A stretch of 46,713 nucleotides of DNA from a phage. Made by a program: the position numbers and the translations under genes. This document shows, piece by piece, positions 2,337-38,455 of this stretch (position 1 is its first letter; each line of letters starts with the position of its first letter). Where the stretch lies: the sequence record PZ379183.1, one strand, 5' to 3'. The notes under the pieces are model-generated. The model had not been told where the DNA came from. It saw nothing but the letters and a program-made list of their open reading frames with translations, and ran no database searches.

Positions 2337-2759
2337 ATGAAATTAAGCAAATCTCAAAGGGAAGAGTTGAAGGGCAAGTTCGGTGGTCGCTGCGCTTATT
2401 GTGGGTGTGAACTACCTGAGAAAGGCTGGCATGCTGACCATGTTGAACCGGTGCTACGTAAATCTGAGGTATGCATGAAGTCAGCGGAGAAAGGAACTTT
2501 CAAGCTGAAGGCGACAGGTGAGTTTAATCGACCACAAGCTGATCGAATGGAAAACCTTTACCCTGCATGTGCTCCATGCAACCTCATGAAAACTTGCTAT
2601 TCCCTTGAAATGTTCAGGGAACAGGTGTCTCTTCAAGTCGCTCGCGGGCGTAAGAGCAGCATGAATTTTCGCACGGCAGAGCGGTTCGGCCTCATCTCCA
2701 TAGTTGAGGATCCAGTTGTTTTCTGGTTTGAGAAGTTTGAGCAAATTAACAAAATCTGA
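2337..2759 (+). CDS. HNH-family endonuclease
   Basis: Cys pairs CAYCGC and CAPCN flanking H-x-D-H-V-E-P and conserved Asn, typical HNH zinc-finger nuclease signature. Confidence 0.6.
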   Translation: MKLSKSQREELKGKFGGRCAYCGCELPEKGWHADHVEPVLRKSEVCMKSAEKGTFKLKATGEFNRPQADRMENLYPACAPCNLMKTCYSLEMFREQVSLQVARGRKSSMNFRTAERFGLISIVEDPVVFWFEKFEQINKI

Positions 2760-21917: not shown

Positions 21918-24900
21918 ATGGCACAAATGGTCAAAACAAATGCGGAGCTATGTGATATGGCGGAAGAAATTAAGATTTATGGAAGTAAGGGCGGACAGCC
22001 AAAGCAGCACCAACCTGTAGAGCAGCCTGATAACCTGATATCCGTAAACAAGGTTAAGGTTTTGCTAGCTGTTTCTGATGGTGAGGTTGATAGCTCATTC
22101 TCCCTAAAGGACCTTTACCTTGCTGACGTTCCTGTACAGAACCAGAATGGCACATACAACTACGAGGGTGTAACGGCAGAGTTTCGCCCTGGCACACAGA
22201 GTCAGGATTACATTGCCGGGCTAGAGGGTGCTAACTCGGAAGTGCAAGTGAACAGGGAGATTAAAAACTCAACTCCTTACATCATTGCTGTTAATAACAC
22301 CCAGCTATCAGCGATTAGGGTTAAGCTGTTTTGGCCTCGTCTGATTAATCAGGAAAGTAACGGAGATCTTAACGGTACCACTTGCGAGTATGCGATTGAC
22401 CTGTCCGTTGATGGCGCTACATACACTGAGTACACGCGCGGAGTAGCTAATGGCAAGACAACTAGCGGGTACGACAGAAGTATCAGGGTTAACCTTCCTG
22501 CTGAGTTCTCGAGTGCGTTGGTGAGGGTTCGTAAGATCACGGCAGATTCAGAAAGTTCGACGCTGGTTAACAATATGCAAATTACGACCTATCAGGAAGT
22601 AATTGATGCGAAATTCCGCTACCCACTTACAGCGCTGGTTTACGTTGAGTTCAGTTCTGACCTCTTCCCTAACGGAATCCCGACGATTTCAATCAAGAAG
22701 AAGTGGAAGTTGATTCGCGTTCCAACTAACTACAACCCAGAGACAAGGACTTACAGCGGAACCTGGAACGGCACCTTTAAGATGGCGTATTCCAATAACC
22801 CGGCGTGGGTTCTTTACGACTTGGTGACGAATCAGCGTTACGGACTTGACCAGCGAGAGCTTGGCATTACTATTGATAAGTGGGGTCTGTATGAGGCGGC
22901 GCAATTCTGTGACCAGATGGTTCCAGATGGTAAGGGTGGAGTTGAGCCGCGCTACCTGTGTGATGTTGTCATTCAGCAGAAAGTTGAAGCATATCAGGTA
23001 ATCCGTGATATTTGCTCTATCTTCCGTGGGCTGACATTCTATGACGGCGAGCAGATAGGGATTGTTGTCGATAAGCCGCGTCAACCATCGTACGTATTCA
23101 CCAATGACAACGTTGTTGATGGATTGTTCAACCGTACATTTGGTAGCGATAAGTCACTTTACACGGTTGCCAACGTTCAGTTTGATGACGTTGAAAACTC
23201 ATACCAACAGGATGTTGAGCCAGTATTCGAGTTAGAGGCAACAAGGCGTTTTGGTTACAACCCGGTCGACCTTACAGCTATTGGATGTACTCGCAGGAGT
23301 GAGGCAAACCGCCGCGGGCGCTGGTTATTAAAGACGAACATTCGCAGCGAGACTATTAGTTTCACTACTGGTCTGGAAGGTATGATTCCAATGATTGGTG
23401 AGGTTATTGCAGTTAATGACCAGGCATGGTCTAGCAACTACACCCTTAACCTTTCTGGTCGTATCGAGTCAGTAAGTGGGTTGCAAGTTTTTGTGCCATT
23501 TAAGATTGATGCTACTGCTGGCGACAGGATTCTAATAAACAAGCCTGATGGAATGCCGGAGTACAGGACCATTGCATCTGTATCTGAAGATGGTATGACG
23601 CTGCAACTTAATACAGCGTTTAGCTTTACTCCTCAGCCTGACACAGTATTTGCGATTGATAAGGAAAATCTTGCTCTTCAGCAATATGTTGTGACCGGTA
23701 TTCAAAAAGCAGACAGCGATGGAGATGATGCGTTTGGTTACACGATTACCGCAGTTGAGTACGACCCGAACAAATACGACGAGATTGATTACGGCGTAAA
23801 CATTCAGGACAGGCCAACTTCAATCGTGGAGCCAGATACATTACTGGCACCCGAGAATGTTCAGGTTAGCAGTTACAGTAAGGTTGTTCAGGGTTTATCA
23901 GTTGAGACAATGGTAATCACGTGGGACAAGGTTCAGTACGCGAAAACCTACACGGTACAGTGGCGCAAGGAGAACGGAAACTGGATTAACGTGCCGCGCA
24001 CAGCAAGCACAGAGGTTGATATTGAAGGTATCTATGCCGGAATTTACCAGGTTCGCGTAAGGGCCGTTTCTGATACTGAAAACGTATCCGCATGGTCTGA
24101 CATTGTTTCAGTAAGCCTCACAGGCAAGATTGGGACCCCTTCTTCACCTACAGTAATCACCGCTTCAGATGATGAAATATTCGGCATTAGGGTTAAGTGG
24201 GGATTTCCTGAAAACTCAGCCGATACGTCATACACTGAATTGCAGCAAGTAGCCGACAATGGTGATGGTACTTATACACCAGAGAATGCTAGCCTTCTGA
24301 CTCTGGTGCCTTACCCGAGTTACGAGTACTGGCATACTACACTTCCTGCTGGAAAGGTCATCTGGTACAGGGCGCGACTGATTGACAAGATTGGTAACGT
24401 CTCACCATGGACTGATTTTGTAAGGGGTATGGCAAGCGATGATGTGTCGTCAATCATTGGTGATATTAAGGTTGATATAGAAAACTCAGATGGGTTCAAG
24501 TATCTCCAACAGAATGCCATTGAGTCAAACGGAGCTATTCAGGCGCAAGCGGAATCAATAATTGAGAACGCCCTGGCTAATGATGGTGACGTGCGTAGAA
24601 TGACGAAGGAAAACGGCAAGAGGAAGGCCGAATTTGTTCAGGCTGTGAATCTTATCGCCGATGAAGAAAGGGCTCGCGTAGAGGCTCTGACGCAGCTTAA
24701 GGCGCAGATTGATGATGAGATTGTAGCTTCATTGACAAGGATTGATACGGCGCTAGCGGAAGAGACGCAAGCAAGGACCACTGCGGACACTGCTTTATCT
24801 GCAAGGCTAGGTGATAATGAGGCTGCGTTAAATGAGAAGTTGGACACTTACGTTACTGCCGATTCAATTGGTGCTCAGTACGGGATTAAACTTGGCCTCA

Positions 24901-25343
24901 AATACAATGGCGTTGAGTACAGTTCTGGCATGAGTATGGAGCTAACTGGTTCTGATGGCAATGTTCGTAGTCAGGTCATCTTTGATGCTAACAGGTTAGC
25001 AATCAGTAACGGCATTAGCTCTGGATCCGGTCAGTGGTCATTGCCTTTCGTAGTTGAAGGTAATCAGGTATTCATTCAAAGCGCAGTGATTCAGGATGGT
25101 TCAATCACTAACGCGAAGATTGGTAACCGGATTCAATCTAATAACTACGTGGCTGGTTCTCAGGGTTGGGCCATTGATAAGTCAGGCAGTGCGGAACTTA
25201 ACAATGCAACTGTAAGGGGTAGTCTGTACGCAAGTAACGGCAACTTTGCGTTTAACGGAACCAACAACACTGTTCAGATTAACAATAATGGAATTACAGT
25301 TAATTTACCGAATGGTGGAAGGGTTGTAGTTGGAGTGTGGTAA
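21918..25343 (+). CDS. tail tip / central fibre protein (lambda gpJ-like host specificity protein)
   Basis: 1141-aa ORF at the end of the tail module; length and position as for J-family proteins. Confidence 0.8.
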   Translation: MAQMVKTNAELCDMAEEIKIYGSKGGQPKQHQPVEQPDNLISVNKVKVLLAVSDGEVDSSFSLKDLYLADVPVQNQNGTYNYEGVTAEFRPGTQSQDYIAGLEGANSEVQVNREIKNSTPYIIAVNNTQLSAIRVKLFWPRLINQESNGDLNGTTCEYAIDLSVDGATYTEYTRGVANGKTTSGYDRSIRVNLPAEFSSALVRVRKITADSESSTLVNNMQITTYQEVIDAKFRYPLTALVYVEFSSDLFPNGIPTISIKKKWKLIRVPTNYNPETRTYSGTWNGTFKMAYSNNPAWVLYDLVTNQRYGLDQRELGITIDKWGLYEAAQFCDQMVPDGKGGVEPRYLCDVVIQQKVEAYQVIRDICSIFRGLTFYDGEQIGIVVDKPRQPSYVFTNDNVVDGLFNRTFGSDKSLYTVANVQFDDVENSYQQDVEPVFELEATRRFGYNPVDLTAIGCTRRSEANRRGRWLLKTNIRSETISFTTGLEGMIPMIGEVIAVNDQAWSSNYTLNLSGRIESVSGLQVFVPFKIDATAGDRILINKPDGMPEYRTIASVSEDGMTLQLNTAFSFTPQPDTVFAIDKENLALQQYVVTGIQKADSDGDDAFGYTITAVEYDPNKYDEIDYGVNIQDRPTSIVEPDTLLAPENVQVSSYSKVVQGLSVETMVITWDKVQYAKTYTVQWRKENGNWINVPRTASTEVDIEGIYAGIYQVRVRAVSDTENVSAWSDIVSVSLTGKIGTPSSPTVITASDDEIFGIRVKWGFPENSADTSYTELQQVADNGDGTYTPENASLLTLVPYPSYEYWHTTLPAGKVIWYRARLIDKIGNVSPWTDFVRGMASDDVSSIIGDIKVDIENSDGFKYLQQNAIESNGAIQAQAESIIENALANDGDVRRMTKENGKRKAEFVQAVNLIADEERARVEALTQLKAQIDDEIVASLTRIDTALAEETQARTTADTALSARLGDNEAALNEKLDTYVTADSIGAQYGIKLGLKYNGVEYSSGMSMELTGSDGNVRSQVIFDANRLAISNGISSGSGQWSLPFVVEGNQVFIQSAVIQDGSITNAKIGNRIQSNNYVAGSQGWAIDKSGSAELNNATVRGSLYASNGNFAFNGTNNTVQINNNGITVNLPNGGRVVVGVW

Positions 25344-25350
25344 ATGATTA

Positions 25351-25375
25351 GGCCCCTTTCGGGGCCTTTTCTTTT
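25351..25375. terminator. terminator hairpin between convergent genes
   Basis: GGCCCC-TTTC-GGGGCC hairpin followed by TTTTCTTTT. Confidence 0.7.
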
Positions 25376-26345
25376 AGTAGAAGTTTGGTATGAATGGTAG
25401 AGCCATTGATATGTTTGTGTCGAATGGGAATTGGGCCCCCGTCTGCGTTGAGTAGTTCCCTATCACAGTGCCTGGAACTGCCCTTACGGCACCACCAGAC
25501 ATGCATATTCCCTTGTACCTTAAGTTGTTATACCCTCCAGTAACTCTTGTTGTAGCGCCGCACCTGAGCAGTGGGAAGAACCCTCCATTTATTGACTGGA
25601 AACCATTGGTTATTTGTATAAAGCCACCAAGCACGAACGGTCGCCTGACGCTTGAAAAAACAATCTGTCCAGAACTATTAGACATTGTGAGTCCTGGGCC
25701 AGCTACTGGAGGGTCATTCCTGAATATCACTAACTGTACGTAAGTACTTGCTGCAACGTCATCTATGCCGCTGTAGTTTATGTTGCGGCACCAAATTGTA
25801 TTACCGTCGCTCTCCAGAGAAACGTTTGGGTTATCCCATTTACCAAATGGAATCCCACTGACTGGTAGTGAGGCGGCGCCGTTAACCTGTATTCCACCAA
25901 CCCATGCCGCAGACATTAACCGCGAATTGCTTGAAATTGCCAAAAAGTCAGTTGAGTTCTCAACCAGTATTCCTGGGCTTGATGAAGACGAGGCTGGGAG
26001 TATTTCAAAGCAATTTCCAGCAAAGTCAATTATACGACCTCTTGCGCCATTGAAGTCACTAAGCGTTATCCTGCCAGTTCCGTCATTTACCTTCTGGAAC
26101 CCGTTCATATAATAAACTTCAGGTACAACATCATAAGCGTCAACGTGCACAGCCTTTGTTGGAAGGCAGAATGCTGTTGAGCCTGGGGACATGGTTAAAC
26201 CAAAATCCCATGATGATGCTGGCGTCGAAAGTCCATTGGTATTTATTGAGCCAGTCACAGCGGGCGCTCTTAATCCTGCCGTTATTTCCATAGGTGGCCT
26301 TCCATCATTAAGGTCAATCAATATTCCTTGAGGCATTATTTCCAC
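25374..26345 (-). CDS. putative receptor-binding / tail fibre-associated protein
   Basis: 323-aa Gly/Ser/Asn/Thr-rich ORF convergent with the J-like gene and co-oriented with the lipoprotein gene; function inferred from context only. Confidence 0.35.
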
Positions 26346-26581
26346 TCCTTAGACCCATGGTCAGCAACAGAGCCACCGTAACCGCCGCCAGCCTTGCTCT
26401 CAATACCAGCGTATCGCACATCAACTTCACCAGACGGTACAACCACACCATTTTCCCATTTAGCCACGCACACGCCGTTTGCTTGCGTTGCACACCATCC
26501 GTCAGGACGCGGAGCAGAAGAACAACCCACCATCATGATTGCTGCTGCTGCGATGATTGAAAGTTTGATTAAGTTAGTCAT
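26336..26581 (-). CDS. small lipoprotein, Cor/Llp-like superinfection-exclusion candidate
   Basis: N-terminal signal peptide with lipobox-like MVGC, mature part ~60 aa with Cys pair; AAGGAATACGAAAATG start with own motif-type promoter. Confidence 0.55.
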
Positions 26582-26649
26582 TTTCGTATTCCTTAGAAGG
26601 TGTGTTTCGTTTCAATGGAGTAATGATATCTCATCCTTGAGATTTGTCT

Positions 26650-26665
26650 TTAGCAATTGGTGCTA
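26650..26665 (-). promoter_or_regulatory. TAGCAC-N5-GCTAA motif copy (minus strand, TAGCACCAATTGCTAA)
   Basis: Encodes the C-terminal STNC and stop of the methyltransferase; followed on the minus strand by GATATC-type element and CATTGAAACGAAACACA leader. Confidence 0.5.
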
Positions 26666-27339
26666 TTTGCAATGAAGACGGCTTTTGCAAAACCGCGAGG
26701 AGTTAGGCTGCGAATTACCTTTGTCTTATTGCTCTTCCCGCCTAGCTTCTTGTATTGGTCAGAGAATCCACCGTTAACGTCCACTGGAATTGCCTCTGGC
26801 CATTTAAACCCATTGCCATACCAAATGCATGTCTTCTTGGGATATGCGTCTTTTGGCTTTATTAGGTCGCTAAAAAACGGGTGTAAATCATCTTCCGGCA
26901 AATAGCCTCCGTATTCATATGGGTGGAAGGTGTTATCAGGTTTTCGCCAAAGTGATGACAGTACGCTGATTGGGTTCTCGATCATGTATGGTACTCCGTA
27001 TTTTTCAGCAAGATTAAAAGCAATCTTGCACGTCTCCGCAGCTTCAATTTGGAAGTTAGGGTTAGCTATACACTTGCGTTCAAAGTGTCTTGATCCGCTC
27101 ACGGCTAAGTCAGTGCATGGAGGGAACGCCATTATAAAATCAGGTTTCACATCAAAATCGAAGTCAGCATCTATCCATGCGTTAACGTATGTGATGTTCT
27201 CATGCTCAACCTTTGCATTTAAGTCACTGTAGCTGCCGTGGTCAGACTCATCAAAGTTGAAACAGTAGCAAGTGTGGCCAGCTTCAGCCCAATCCTTTAC
27301 CGCCAGACCAGAACCATCAAATAAAGACCAGATAACCAT
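26650..27339 (-). CDS. DNA (cytosine-5) methyltransferase (putative, short)
   Basis: N-terminal SLFDGSG (SAM-binding motif I), FPPC (Pro-Cys catalytic motif) and IENP (ENV-like motif) in C5-MTase order. Confidence 0.55.
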   Translation of the reverse strand: MVIWSLFDGSGLAVKDWAEAGHTCYCFNFDESDHGSYSDLNAKVEHENITYVNAWIDADFDFDVKPDFIMAFPPCTDLAVSGSRHFERKCIANPNFQIEAAETCKIAFNLAEKYGVPYMIENPISVLSSLWRKPDNTFHPYEYGGYLPEDDLHPFFSDLIKPKDAYPKKTCIWYGNGFKWPEAIPVDVNGGFSDQYKKLGGKSNKTKVIRSLTPRGFAKAVFIANSTNC

Positions 27340-27397
27340 TTTAAAATTCTCTCTCGTTGTTTGTGTTGCTAACTATACCCGGTTTTGCGGATCAGTT

Positions 27398-27413
27398 TTA
27401 GCAATTAGTGCTA
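27398..27413 (-). promoter_or_regulatory. TAGCAC-N5-GCTAA motif copy (minus strand)
   Basis: TAGCACTAATTGCTAA on minus strand about 60 nt upstream of the methyltransferase start. Confidence 0.45.
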
Positions 27414-27439
27414 TGTTTACGCGTAACCGATGTAACTCG

Positions 27440-27720
27440 ATGTATGCAATCTCATCCGCGAAAAATGATATACGCAATGTTACGCCAATTTACGCATTGG
27501 TTACATTAAAATATATATATATATCAACCTTTTACTCTTATTATTATTATTATATATATTACTATGTATATCATGTAACTGCTCTTATGGAGTGTTTCGG
27601 TTATAATTTTAATATCATGTGGATTTATACAGTATTGCGCGGTAGCTATACCAATGCACCCTCAGCAATAAATGATATACATGATATACGCACTATTTAC
27701 ATTGAGCTATAGCTTGGCTC
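27440..27720. repeat. AT-rich iteron and microsatellite region
   Basis: TACGC repeated three times at 10-bp spacing (27474-27500), GATATACGCA copies at 27466 and 27681, (AT)n and (TTA)5 tracts; 85-bp segment 27491-27575 duplicated at 46416-46500. Confidence 0.7.
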
Positions 27721-27883
27721 AGGTACCAAAAAACGTAACTAGTTCCAATGTACACACGGAATTACAAGAATTCACGCGTAAACTTAAATCAACGATTGGC
27801 GAAACCAATTGGACTGGGTGCGGCGCTGAATATATAGTTAAACCATCGAAAGCAAGCAAGCAAGCAAACAGAGAGATACAGAA

Positions 27884-28078
27884 ATGACCTACTACATTAT
27901 CAAAGAGAAAAACAACCCACTGTTCGGAGACTGCTACTTTGGTGGCCCAGCTGGATACACTACCAACAAATCTGAAGCCGACCAATTCGAGACAAAGGAA
28001 GAGGCCAAGGAGTTGCTGACCGGGTACTTCACTGAGGAAGATTTGAAAACAGTTAAGATTGTTAAAATTAAGGATTGA
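27884..28078 (+). CDS. hypothetical protein (64 aa)
   Basis: GAGAGATACAGAAATG start; first gene of the recombination operon. Confidence 0.45.
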   Translation: MTYYIIKEKNNPLFGDCYFGGPAGYTTNKSEADQFETKEEAKELLTGYFTEEDLKTVKIVKIKD

Positions 28079-28081
28079 ACC

Positions 28082-29053
28082 ATGACATTTAAAGTTTATA
28101 CGAACGACGAGCTAACAAATGAATCCTATCACGAAGAGCAAGACCATATCTCTGGCTCTTCACTGGCTGAGATTCTTGCTACCTCACCAGCTAAATGGAA
28201 GTTTAAGCAGCGCAATAACTCTAGCGCAGCACTTAAATTTGGCACACTAAGTCACTGCATGATGCTAGAGCGCGAGGTATTTGACTCAACATACATGCGA
28301 GCTACTGACTTTGACGAAGTGGAAGGATTGATTACTAGCCAAACGGCTTTATCCGCAGCGCTTAAAAAAGTTGGAGTTTCAGGCACGTCAGGGAAGGGAT
28401 ATAGCGAGCTCGTGGAGATGATGTATAAATCTGGTGAGGATTGGCCTGTTAAATGGTTAATTGAGCAGCAGGAGAGCGCTGAGGCGTTAATTAGTGGCAA
28501 AGAGCTCGTTACTGCGAAAGATTACGATAAGGTAATCTCAATGCGCGAGGTTCTTACTAATATCCCAGCTTACGATGCGATTATTAACTCACCAACAGCA
28601 CAGAAAGAGCTATCAATCTTTGGTGAGATTCTTGGGTGTGGTGTTAAGGTTAGGCTTGATCACGTGGATGTTGTTGATGGCGTGGTTTTCATTACTGACT
28701 ACAAGACGACGGCGGACGCAAGCCCGAGAGGATTTGGCAAGTCAGCTTATGACCATGGATACCTGTGCAAAATGAGCCTTCAGCGTGACTTGTTCGTGAA
28801 GGCATTTAACGAGAAGCGTAAGGTTGTGGTTCGACTTCTGGCGCAGGAAAAAACGGAGCCTTACTTACCAATGAGCTACACGCTTACAGATGAACAGCTT
28901 CGCATTGGTCGTTTACAATATTGTGAGGCACTAGCAACATACAAACAGTGCAAGGAGCTTGATGTATGGCCTGGGTATAGCAATGGGATTACAGAGCAAG
29001 ATTTGATGATTCCTGAGTGGGTAAGTAAGCAGTATCAAGAACTTCTAAAATAG
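28082..29053 (+). CDS. PD-(D/E)XK exonuclease (YqaJ/RecE/lambda Exo-like)
   Basis: VRLDHVDVVDGVVFITDYKT region resembles the Asp...Asp/Glu-x-Lys nuclease core; adjacent to the annealing protein gene. Confidence 0.6.
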   Translation: MTFKVYTNDELTNESYHEEQDHISGSSLAEILATSPAKWKFKQRNNSSAALKFGTLSHCMMLEREVFDSTYMRATDFDEVEGLITSQTALSAALKKVGVSGTSGKGYSELVEMMYKSGEDWPVKWLIEQQESAEALISGKELVTAKDYDKVISMREVLTNIPAYDAIINSPTAQKELSIFGEILGCGVKVRLDHVDVVDGVVFITDYKTTADASPRGFGKSAYDHGYLCKMSLQRDLFVKAFNEKRKVVVRLLAQEKTEPYLPMSYTLTDEQLRIGRLQYCEALATYKQCKELDVWPGYSNGITEQDLMIPEWVSKQYQELLK

Positions 29054-29066
29054 CACTAATTGCTAA
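29051..29066 (+). promoter_or_regulatory. TAGCAC-N5-GCTAA motif copy (TAGCACTAATTGCTAA)
   Basis: The TAG is the exonuclease stop codon; followed by GGTATGAT and ACGAAAGAGAG leader. Confidence 0.5.
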
Positions 29067-29123
29067 AGACAAAATCAAAAGGTGAGGTATGATTGCCCCA
29101 CTTAAACGAAAGAGAGATAGTTA

Positions 29124-32815: not shown

Positions 32816-32837
32816 TGTAAAGTCTCCATTTGTAAAG

Positions 32838-32900: not shown

Positions 32901-33824
32901 TTAGTTTAGCAAGTCGTTTGCTTTGTACACTTTCTTTCGTATGCCTGTTTTAAATGACTCACCGTCATTAGGAACTACAACATCAACACCCCTATCGTCA
33001 GCAACAGCGAGTATATCGCTATCAGAATCACGGCAAGCAATTCTGAACTTCCTTGACTTGTCGCGGTGGATAACCATCTCCATATTGTAACAGGAGAAAG
33101 CAACAAACACTTCGCGCCCACCAGTAGCAAGGTGAACACGTATGCCATCAATATAATTGTCAACAACATAAGTATAACTATCATCCAGCTTAGAACCAAT
33201 AACGGAAACAGAATCACGAGTGTAATCACCAGCAAGGAACTTAACATTTGAATCCTCATCAATAAACATTACGTTACAGAACTCATCACTAAGCCCATCT
33301 TCATAAACCATCGAACAAGGGATTGCGTGAATCATTGAACAATTTTTAGCTATACCAACATCAAAACCAAACTCGTCATAAATACCCTCGTATGTCGTGA
33401 GTGGACTAGATTCAACTCGCTGAGTCCTCTCCATGACCTCAAGAACTTTCTTGTGGTCTACTTGAGCGCAAATTTTATAACGCTGCGTTCTTGATGCTTG
33501 CTTGTTTGCTTTAACTATAACCTCAATTGGTATTAAGTTCAGCCAGTCACCAAGCAAATTTACTGAATCAGCGAAGGACAATCCAGTGCACTTCATGACC
33601 CATCCTATACCGGAGTCACTTCCGCATTTCGAACAAACTGCCGCGCCATTTCCTTTTTCACTGCCTATTTCGTCGGTAAATCTGAATCTGTCAGTGCCAA
33701 AGCAGTATGGGCATGGTCCGTGCTTCTTACTTAGGTGTCTATCATTCCAACCAAGTTCCTTTGCATAAAATGATTTCCACAATCCGGCCATCTTAGGTAT
33801 AACTTCATTCTTATCGTAATTCAT
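32901..33824 (-). CDS. DNA primase (zinc-finger primase, putative)
   Basis: N-terminal zinc ribbon C-P-Y-C...C-S-K-C followed by acidic catalytic-like region; upstream of helicase in the replication block. Confidence 0.65.
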   Translation of the reverse strand: MNYDKNEVIPKMAGLWKSFYAKELGWNDRHLSKKHGPCPYCFGTDRFRFTDEIGSEKGNGAAVCSKCGSDSGIGWVMKCTGLSFADSVNLLGDWLNLIPIEVIVKANKQASRTQRYKICAQVDHKKVLEVMERTQRVESSPLTTYEGIYDEFGFDVGIAKNCSMIHAIPCSMVYEDGLSDEFCNVMFIDEDSNVKFLAGDYTRDSVSVIGSKLDDSYTYVVDNYIDGIRVHLATGGREVFVAFSCYNMEMVIHRDKSRKFRIACRDSDSDILAVADDRGVDVVVPNDGESFKTGIRKKVYKANDLLN

Positions 33825-34300
33825 TTGCTTAACCCGTGATTTTCGTGAAAGTTGTATTTTCCCTCTGCTTCAATTCTTACTTTATACGCCCGCTCTGGAG
33901 TATCGAAGTTCCCAAGGTGTAGCTGCTTGCCGTCAACCTTGATGTGAGCCTTAAATTTTCCGTGATTTAGCTTTGCCACTCCACAATAACCAGTTGTTGA
34001 TAAAACGCTAAGCTTGCAATTTCTTGAGTTACCTTGATTTGTTGTTACTCTTAGGTTTTCTATTCTGTTATCTAATTTGTTATGGTTTATATGATCAATG
34101 TAGTCGCCATTTTGAAGTTCTCCATTAAACATCTCCCACACAACTCTATGTACATAAGTCCTAAAGCCATTAACAGACACTTTGTAATAGCCAGATGTAG
34201 ATAGTGAGTTGCACTCATCGCCAACCTTAACACGTCTTGCAGTGCTAATCTTCCAATGCAATTTGCCATCTACATAGTAAAAATAATCATGCCAGTTCAT
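33821..34300 (-). CDS. HNH homing endonuclease
   Basis: YVHRVVW...IDHINHNKLDNRIENLR signature; paralogue of 14169..14651. Confidence 0.75.
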   Translation of the reverse strand: MNWHDYFYYVDGKLHWKISTARRVKVGDECNSLSTSGYYKVSVNGFRTYVHRVVWEMFNGELQNGDYIDHINHNKLDNRIENLRVTTNQGNSRNCKLSVLSTTGYCGVAKLNHGKFKAHIKVDGKQLHLGNFDTPERAYKVRIEAEGKYNFHENHGLSK

Positions 34301-34351: not shown

Positions 34352-34825
34352 TTACTCTTTAGCTTTTCGTGCGGCTTCGTTGGCAATCTTATTCTTGCGC
34401 CACGGTCGACAAGGTGGCTTTGTTGCTAGTTCAGCCTCAGTAACCACGCGTAGCATGTGGCGCTTCTTGCATCTAAGCGTCAGAGGCTTACCGTTACCGT
34501 CAAATTGCAGGTCTGGTCGGCAGAAAGTAGCTCGGAACCCTCCCTTATTTCTCTTGTACGCATTATGTGCTCGCTGGGCGCCTCGAGCCGAAATCATACC
34601 GCGATCAAACCATTGTTCTACAGTCTGGTGAGATACATTTAACTGCTTGGCGATATTGGCCTTCGTGCCGTAGAAGTCAAGAACCATCTCCAGACGAGCT
34701 CTTAGCCCAGCCTTTACTTCATCTTTCAATACGTAGTAGCCTGACGGTCGTTTGCGCTGTTTCTTGTCTTGCGTGCGGATGGTTCCGTTATTGCCGTTGA
34801 TAGTTCGCTTGTCAATTTCACACAT
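34352..34825 (-). CDS. Cro/YdaS-like HTH DNA-binding protein (putative regulator)
   Basis: GTKANIAKQLNVSHQTVEQWF helix-turn-helix segment, basic C-terminal region; first gene of a minus-strand operon from a divergent control region. Confidence 0.4.
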   Translation of the reverse strand: MCEIDKRTINGNNGTIRTQDKKQRKRPSGYYVLKDEVKAGLRARLEMVLDFYGTKANIAKQLNVSHQTVEQWFDRGMISARGAQRAHNAYKRNKGGFRATFCRPDLQFDGNGKPLTLRCKKRHMLRVVTEAELATKPPCRPWRKNKIANEAARKAKE

Positions 34826-38203: not shown

Positions 38204-38455
38204 ATGTTGGGATTAGATTTTCAGCCTGGGCATTATGACTTAGTACATGGTAGTAGTGGGAATAAGTTTAGAGCAATCCCTATTTCTGACTGGTTTCCTC
38301 CTGACTACGTAGATGTTAATGCGAAGACTAAAGATGGCAAGTGGGTACAGATTTATTATTCACCATCATGTGGAAACCTGTGCATGACTGACCTGGACAA
38401 GAAATTAGCAATTTGTGCTACTTTGTTGGACTTTTGGTTGAAAGAGGTTGAATGA
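38204..38455 (+). CDS. hypothetical protein (83 aa)
   Basis: ORF in operon context. Confidence 0.4.
   Translation: MLGLDFQPGHYDLVHGSSGNKFRAIPISDWFPPDYVDVNAKTKDGKWVQIYYSPSCGNLCMTDLDKKLAICATLLDFWLKEVE

Follow-up and report, generated by a model that had tools for sequence, protein, structure and literature searches.

The one experimentally studied member of the phage methyltransferase family considered here is the Dcm of K42, a KarlJaspers-like Drexlerviridae phage whose escapers were isolated in work on the retron Ec86 (bioRxiv 10.1101/2023.08.16.553469). All four K42 escapers carried lesions within or just upstream of the 711-bp dcm, and expression of this gene alone in E. coli was toxic only with the retron present (bioRxiv 10.1101/2023.08.16.553469). 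By LC-MS, wild-type K42 Dcm gave high 5mC in the retron msDNA; a C82A/E128A/K175A/K176A mutant or the empty vector gave low msDNA 5mC, and the empty-vector control was not toxic (bioRxiv 10.1101/2023.08.16.553469). A Dcm was encoded by 34 of the 35 retron-sensitive phages (bioRxiv 10.1101/2023.08.16.553469). The CCWGG target of K42 Dcm was assumed from the site of E. coli Dcm, and the sole evidence on this site is that mutation of CCTGG in the msDNA abolished defense (bioRxiv 10.1101/2023.08.16.553469).

In the BASEL study, Drexlerviridae methyltransferase genes had no simple link to restriction resistance, and the resistance of Klebsiella phage DNAs to EcoRII is confounded by host Dcm. Our literature search returned no direct methylome data for phages carrying short Dcm-like genes. 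E. coli Dcm itself is extended at the N terminus and contains a large recognition domain, and vsr accompanies its gene. The mammalian enzymes DNMT3A and DNMT3B are CpG-specific and oligomeric and carry regulatory domains. CmoX is a cytosine-C5 carboxymethyltransferase that uses carboxy-SAM, recognizes GC and is linked to cmoA and cmoY; its hallmarks are an SPPC motif and an arginine at the position of HhaI Asn304.

The window analyzed here is the whole 46,713-nt phage sequence PZ379183.1, in which a first-pass annotation had put forward an unusually short C5-cytosine methyltransferase candidate. This call is correct but ordinary: the gene is already annotated, is of a kind common in virulent phages and comes from a large family of which one member has been studied experimentally.

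The 229-residue protein and its family

The mechanical ORF list places the gene on the minus strand with an ATG start and a product of 229 residues (Table 1). The coordinates, length and motif order given in the first-pass annotation, which named no strand, all match this list and its translation, in which motifs I, IV and VI follow the canonical order. For comparison, M.HhaI and M.HaeIII have 327-328 residues and E. coli Dcm has 472. The gene product falls in phrog_757, the short "Dcm-like" family of phages, and we consider it highly probable that it works alone as a SAM-dependent methyltransferase of DNA cytosine C5.

Table 1. Features of the methyltransferase locus; residue numbers refer to the 229-residue protein and all other positions to the window
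Feature	Position	Strand	Basis or remark
Probable short Dcm-like C5-cytosine DNA methyltransferase CDS	26650..27339	-	ORF list, homology, predicted fold, conservation
Motif I, FDGSG	residues 7-11		translation
Motif IV, FPPC	residues 72-75		translation; includes Cys75
Motif VI, IENP	residues 120-123		translation; includes Glu121
KKTC	residues 168-171		
C-terminal segment RSLTPRGFAKAV	residues 210-221		
Cys75 codon, predicted catalytic nucleophile	27115..27117	-	TGC in raw sequence; equals C82 of K42/KarlJaspers Dcm
Glu121 codon, motif VI ENV-type glutamate	26977..26979	-	GAG in raw sequence; equals E128 of K42/KarlJaspers Dcm
Insertion, residues 139-169	26833..26925	-	strongly conserved, family-specific, ~30 residues, between predicted strands 6 and 7
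Variable segment, residues 177-203	26731..26811	-	site of target-recognition domain in canonical C5-MTases; lower pLDDT, higher entropy
17-nt palindromic motif copy, sense ATAGCACTAATTGCTAA	27398..27414	-	58 nt upstream of start codon
-10-like hexamer TATAGT	27372..27377	-	consensus position, methyltransferase promoter-like cassette
Purine-rich ribosome-binding region GAGAGAGA	27348..27355	-	8 nt before ATG
Second 17-nt motif copy	26650..26666	-	encodes methyltransferase last codons and TAA stop
All 17-nt motif copies	1181, 1863, 3208, 6949, 26650, 27398, 29050, 32837, 37334, 38405, 40757, 44208, 44988, 46137		

An HMM search against methyltransferase families, suggested as a check in the first-pass annotation, gave a divided answer. 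In PHROGs, the protein matched phrog_757 ("DNA methyltransferase") at full length with an E value of 1e-84, residues 1-227 covering profile positions 15-220 of 247. The Pfam model PF00145 stayed below threshold, with 16.4 bits against a gathering cut-off of 22, matched the N-terminal residues 3-85 only and reached an E value below 0.01 in just 3 of 78 family members. NCBIfam returned no match to the 229-residue protein, and sequence and profile searches of PDB chains found nothing relevant, the sole match being a spurious kinase with an E value of 1.3. The Pfam C5-methylase model misses the phrog_757 family, which is picked up by PHROG or structure-based annotation.

Homologs were found by tblastn in 1,570 of 50,697 phage records, including phages of Escherichia, Klebsiella, Salmonella, Shigella, Vibrio and Flavobacterium, and many of these records say "hypothetical protein" because the Pfam model misses the family. 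The best tblastn match was bas01_0030 of AugustePiccard (BASEL Bas01), which is 93% identical, lies at the same locus and is annotated as a "Dcm-like C5 cytosine methyltransferase." A large protein collection yielded 3,330 clusters at an E value of ≤0.001, and full-length homologs ranged from 1e-147 to 1e-85. When a profile of homologs was run against 50%-identity representatives, it found 2,054 clusters (917 of them below 1e-10) with a median length of 235 residues, nearly all stand-alone proteins. Two metagenome members are fusions: in P0257 (563 residues) the short Dcm-like domain is joined to a D12 Dam-type adenine methyltransferase, and in P0249 (348 residues) to an HNH_2 nuclease domain. 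Judged on sequence, this pattern of motifs and homology is far above chance expectation.

The "Dcm-like" gene of KarlJaspers (Bas06, MZ501090), bas06_0055, is exactly 711 bp long, and its product has Cys at position 82, Glu at 128 and Lys at both 175 and 176. A full-length alignment of this product with the 229-residue protein shows 59% identity (E value of 3e-98) and puts C82, E128, K175 and K176 of KarlJaspers Dcm on C75, E121, K168 and K169. What we say of 5mC formation and of retron triggering comes from the literature on this 59%-identical homolog.

With E. coli Dcm the relationship is of another kind. An hhalign comparison placed FPPC on GFPCQ and IENP on LENV with the right spacing, and the match of the family profile to the single E. 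coli Dcm sequence, with a probability of 0.4% and an E value of 0.16, was not significant. There is no Vsr-like neighbor, the two adjoining ORFs matching membrane-protein and small lipoprotein families. We rejected an ortholog of E. coli Dcm on the lack of significant similarity, the lengths of 229 versus 472 residues and the missing Vsr-like neighbor; on these comparisons, "Dcm-like" is best read as a functional nickname and not as orthology.

Predicted fold, target recognition and rival readings

An AlphaFold2 model of the protein, built on 50 homologs, had a mean pLDDT of 87.6 and a pTM of 0.88 and contained seven strands as in a class I methyltransferase. Confidence dropped only at the catalytic loop after FPPC, at residues 121-130 past ENP and at residues 191-200. 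Foldseek against the PDB returned the catalytic domains of DNMT3A and DNMT3B on top (probability of 1.0), followed by MET1 and DNMT1. The predicted fold is thus that of a class I methyltransferase nearest to solved C5-MTases, and DNA enzymes outscored the Dnmt2-like RNA enzyme. BFVD returned members of the family, named DNA-cytosine methylase, along with further viral cytosine methylases ∼200 to 250 residues long.

Conservation was assessed on an alignment of 78 diverse members, down to ∼35% identity, with the 229-residue protein as the reference row. Cys75, Glu121, Pro123, Pro140, Tyr166, Trp173 and Pro181 are invariant and all present in the protein, while F72, P73, N122, D164, K168, T170, R210, P214 and G216 are nearly invariant, F72, P73 and Asn122 each being at least 90% conserved. 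The motif I named in the first-pass annotation, FDGSG, is present in the protein, but FxGxG did not hold up as a family feature: the 78 members share SLFDxTG, and only the last Gly of FxGxG is common. At the start of strand 7, the family has K168-K169-T170 (K168 and T170 at least 90% conserved), which is a candidate counterpart of motif VIII, Q-x-R-x-R. In E. coli Dcm, motif IX reads RRLTPRECARL and motif X reads GNSVVVPVFAAV; toward the C terminus of the phage protein, the segment RSLTPRGFAKAVF resembles both alike, and RSLTPRGFAKAV leaves room for just one of the two.

Two segments bear on target recognition. Residues 139-169 have an entropy of 1.7 bits and are conserved as strongly as the catalytic motifs, with P140, D164, Y166 and K168 invariant or nearly so and a pLDDT of 91 to 97 over the block; we infer that this insertion, a candidate element, probably supplies DNA contacts. 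Residues 177-203, which follow strand 7 and precede the C-terminal helices, are variable, with an entropy of 2.6 bits. From alignment and model, the target-recognition domain appears to be cut to these ∼27 residues, making the enzyme a bare catalytic domain, and the earlier remark that no large target-recognition domain is evident was borne out by this segment and by the family's median length. The broader proposal, that this is a short C5-cytosine methyltransferase of DNA whose recognition module is minimal, likewise finds support in the fold, the invariant Cys and Glu, the annotated relative and the 59%-identical homolog reported to form 5mC. To our knowledge, few C5-DNA methyltransferase architectures are as small as that of the phrog_757 family.

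In the mechanism that we propose, which is standard for this fold, Cys75 of the FPPC loop would attack C6 of a flipped-out cytosine while Glu121 of IENP would contact cytosine N3/N4; the methyl group of SAM would then pass to C5 and the cysteine would be eliminated. The substrate would be replicating phage DNA and, incidentally, host DNA. We infer that the site would most likely be CCWGG or a related short sequence and that 5mC would mask the genome from cytosine-sensitive restriction, for example, by EcoRII-type enzymes; an anti-restriction role is plausible on our analysis. The same mark may also be a liability for the phage, because the activity of the homolog on msDNA triggers Retron-Eco1/Ec86 abortive infection. 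Phages that carry the gene are predicted to contain 5mC in their virion DNA and to be sensitive to hosts with Retron-Eco1/Ec86, BL21 among them.

On the target itself, MG1655, which we take to be dcm+, nevertheless showed low control msDNA methylation, which suggests on our analysis that the phage enzyme differs from host Dcm in amount, in access to the hairpin or in specificity. The 79 CCWGG sites in the window, 0.78 of expectation, are uninformative on specificity. A bolder idea, unlikely but worth stating, is that phrog_757 enzymes lack a classical recognition domain and read DNA by means of the insertion that separates strands 6 and 7 or by DNMT3A-like self-association, with a shorter or non-CCWGG site possible. 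In a remoter version, Arg210 may also let these enzymes use carboxy-SAM. If true, recognition without a classical domain would be a mode absent from solved C5-MTases. A phrog_757 methylome together with a DNA-bound structure would bring a modest but real gain in our understanding of how such enzymes read DNA.

The first-pass annotation had also suggested that the protein may need a partner for specificity. We compared the genes beside the methyltransferase in 5 to 6 phage lineages or contexts, and no conserved partner gene was found among them. The PZ379183.1 phage and AugustePiccard (Drexlerviridae, Braunvirinae) have a lipoprotein gene downstream; immediately upstream there is no gene in the former and there are three extra small genes in the latter. 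The neighbors are small early genes in KarlJaspers (Drexlerviridae, Tempevirinae), small hypothetical genes in JSE (Krischvirus) and in the Klebsiella siphophage Snyder, and small genes in CB7 (Vequintavirinae), where an HNH gene and a Lar-annotated gene lie nearby. In NBSal006 (Jerseyvirus), the gene stands between a DNA polymerase upstream and a helicase downstream.

A catalytic subunit that needs a separate phage or host specificity partner, or in a milder form one that homodimerizes in the style of DNMT3A, would fit both the ∼27 variable residues at the position of the recognition domain and the top structural matches, DNMT3A and DNMT3B, which work as oligomers. We nevertheless regard it as improbable, given that the neighbors differ in every lineage and that plasmid-borne K42 Dcm, with no other phage genes, raised 5mC and triggered the retron (bioRxiv 10.1101/2023.08.16.553469). 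Together with the Dam and HNH fusions, these observations argue against an obligate phage-encoded partner, and the suggestion was not upheld; a host partner or self-association has a small probability. Transfer of a group other than methyl, such as carboxymethyl from carboxy-SAM as in CmoX, or 5mC as a mere side reaction, is very improbable: the homolog gave 5mC by LC-MS (bioRxiv 10.1101/2023.08.16.553469), and neither a cmoA-like gene or Cx-SAM synthase nor a ligase-like gene or amide ligase was named among the 31 ORFs scanned against PHROGs. The near-invariant Arg210-Ser211 could sit at the position of HhaI Asn304, as such an enzyme would have it, but the equivalence of Arg210 is uncertain because RSLTPRGFAKA matches RRLTPRECARL, which is motif IX of E. 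coli Dcm, at least equally well. DNMT3A, a true methyltransferase, presumably has an Arg at that position as well, which also counts against a CmoX-type activity.

An RNA (tRNA) cytosine-C5 methyltransferase like Dnmt2 has a very slim chance of being correct, since the structure scores higher for DNA enzymes, the homolog methylates DNA and one member of the family comes as a fusion with a Dam-type DNA methyltransferase. Classical multispecific C5-MTases have several tandem recognition modules and roughly 440 to 500 residues. A multispecific enzyme had been raised in the first-pass annotation; that the protein guards many sites like the enzymes of the Bacillus phages SPR and phi3T is extremely improbable at 229 residues with a single variable segment of ∼27 residues. 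With so small a recognition module, the target could in principle be short and hence frequent, but short or relaxed specificity, which the enzyme may have, is a property distinct from multispecificity. We rejected the multispecific enzyme, the obligate phage-encoded partner, the RNA methyltransferase and the host Dcm ortholog as readings and retain the stand-alone DNA cytosine-C5 methyltransferase.

Cassette borders and the surrounding genome

Compared with phage ES, the window carries an extra 729 bp (26668..27396) that comprises the methyltransferase ORF and its 5' leader. It is bordered by an 18-nt repeat with copies at 26649-26666 and 27397-27414, and the junction in ES has a single copy of the motif. 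Only three records of the phage collection covered at least 80% of a 2.1-kb query (26000-28100), and several other relatives, such as phage ES, aligned over the methyltransferase flanks only.

The repeat contains a 17-nt core, TTAGCAATTNGTGCTAT, of which the window has 14 copies versus 0.3 expected (Table 1). Nearly all copies are at gene boundaries; that at 38405 lies inside a mechanically called ORF (38204..38455). Twelve copies were aligned, those at 32837 and 38405 being left out as they have no downstream cassette. Read in the same sense as the gene beside them, the aligned copies have the sequence ATAGCACNAATTGCTAA, with half-sites TAGCA/TGCTA, and the motif often supplies the TAA stop codon of the upstream gene. 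A TATAAT-like box follows ∼21 nt after the motif, and most copies have, close to this box, a short inverted repeat whose sequence varies. Beyond the box come a leader that is conserved (consensus CATCGAAACGAAA), a stretch rich in purines and then the next start codon. If transcription starts where the -10-like box implies, the center of the palindrome lies ∼42 nt upstream of that start, the distance at which class II activators bind. A full-text literature search for the motif sequence found nothing relevant.

Since the motif, box and leader all stand upstream of it, the methyltransferase gene appears to have its own promoter-like cassette, from which it would be expressed, with its stop codon inside the cassette of the next gene: the copy at 26650..26666 stands at the head of the promoter-like cassette for the lipoprotein gene (26336..26581, minus strand) as well. 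These elements look like a phage promoter or regulon signal that also marks the borders of exchangeable gene cassettes. By its sequence context, the methyltransferase gene appears to be an accessory module exchanged at repeated 17-nt motifs, which would be gained or lost by recombination between them.

Several further observations concern the same elements. A 64-nt inverted repeat, 80% complementary, joins 26605-26668 and 29048-29111; the 3' flanks of the methyltransferase and exonuclease VIII genes are alike because both copy the same motif-plus-leader cassette. On the minus strand at 34352-34825, adjoining the primase gene, is a MerR-like regulator (phrog_2856, E value of 2e-81), which may bind the palindromic promoter motif.

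The flanks of the methyltransferase gene are those of T1-like coliphages (Drexlerviridae, Braunvirinae), at 80 to 90% identity. The gene order runs from terminase, portal, capsid and tape measure to a J-like tip protein (21918-25343), past which a membrane protein and a small lipoprotein are encoded on the minus strand. Further on come exonuclease VIII, Erf, SSB, a lateral tail fiber, primase, helicases and lysis genes. The membrane protein has 323 residues (25374-26345, minus strand, phrog_1265), and the small lipoprotein, directly downstream of the methyltransferase gene (26336-26581, minus strand, phrog_4281), has a signal peptide and Cys. By position and type, we take this pair to be similar to the genes for superinfection exclusion, Cor/Llp-like, that T1- and T5-like phages carry.

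On its other side, the methyltransferase gene diverges from a 64-aa gene across an AT-rich intergenic region of ∼470 bp (27415-27883), which is kept in phage ES at ∼82% identity. It holds (TA)n and (TAA)n runs, small palindromes and the direct repeats ATGATATACGCA at 27465 and 27681, and may act in divergent control or as an origin.

Elsewhere in the window there are two HNH endonuclease genes, at 2337-2759 (plus strand, phrog_2118) and 33821-34300 (minus strand, phrog_99), which probably encode homing endonucleases and arrived by insertion among early and replication genes. GATC is depleted 5-fold (40 sites versus about 200 expected), CTGCAG is absent (10 expected) and AAGCTT occurs 5 times (18 expected). 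With KarlJaspers Dam as the query, no Dam homolog was found in the window. The scarcity of these sites and the lack of a Dam homolog therefore suggest restriction-site avoidance rather than methylation at those sites.

Comparison with known systems

Among known proteins, the mammalian DNMT3A and DNMT3B catalytic domains have an identity to the phage protein of only 10 to 16%. CmoX (PDB 8yf3) differs in its chain of 333 residues, against 229 here, and in having SPPC where the phage protein has FPPC. E. coli Dcm and EcoRII-type enzymes share the same chemistry and possibly the same CCWGG site.

Among phages, JeanPiccard and BEK2/BEK3 belong with AugustePiccard among the closest known relatives. 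The 93%-identical AugustePiccard protein is of equal length, its gene lies beside the same lipoprotein and membrane-protein genes, and its function is assigned by annotation; the difference is in the three extra upstream genes, which are inserted at another copy of the 17-nt motif. K42/KarlJaspers Dcm differs in the variable segment after strand 7, and in KarlJaspers the gene is found among small early genes near 40 kb, whereas here it has the lipoprotein gene on one side and the exonuclease VIII module on the other. It has in common with the protein studied here the family, the positions of the catalytic Cys, Glu and Lys-Lys residues, the host genus and the phage family.
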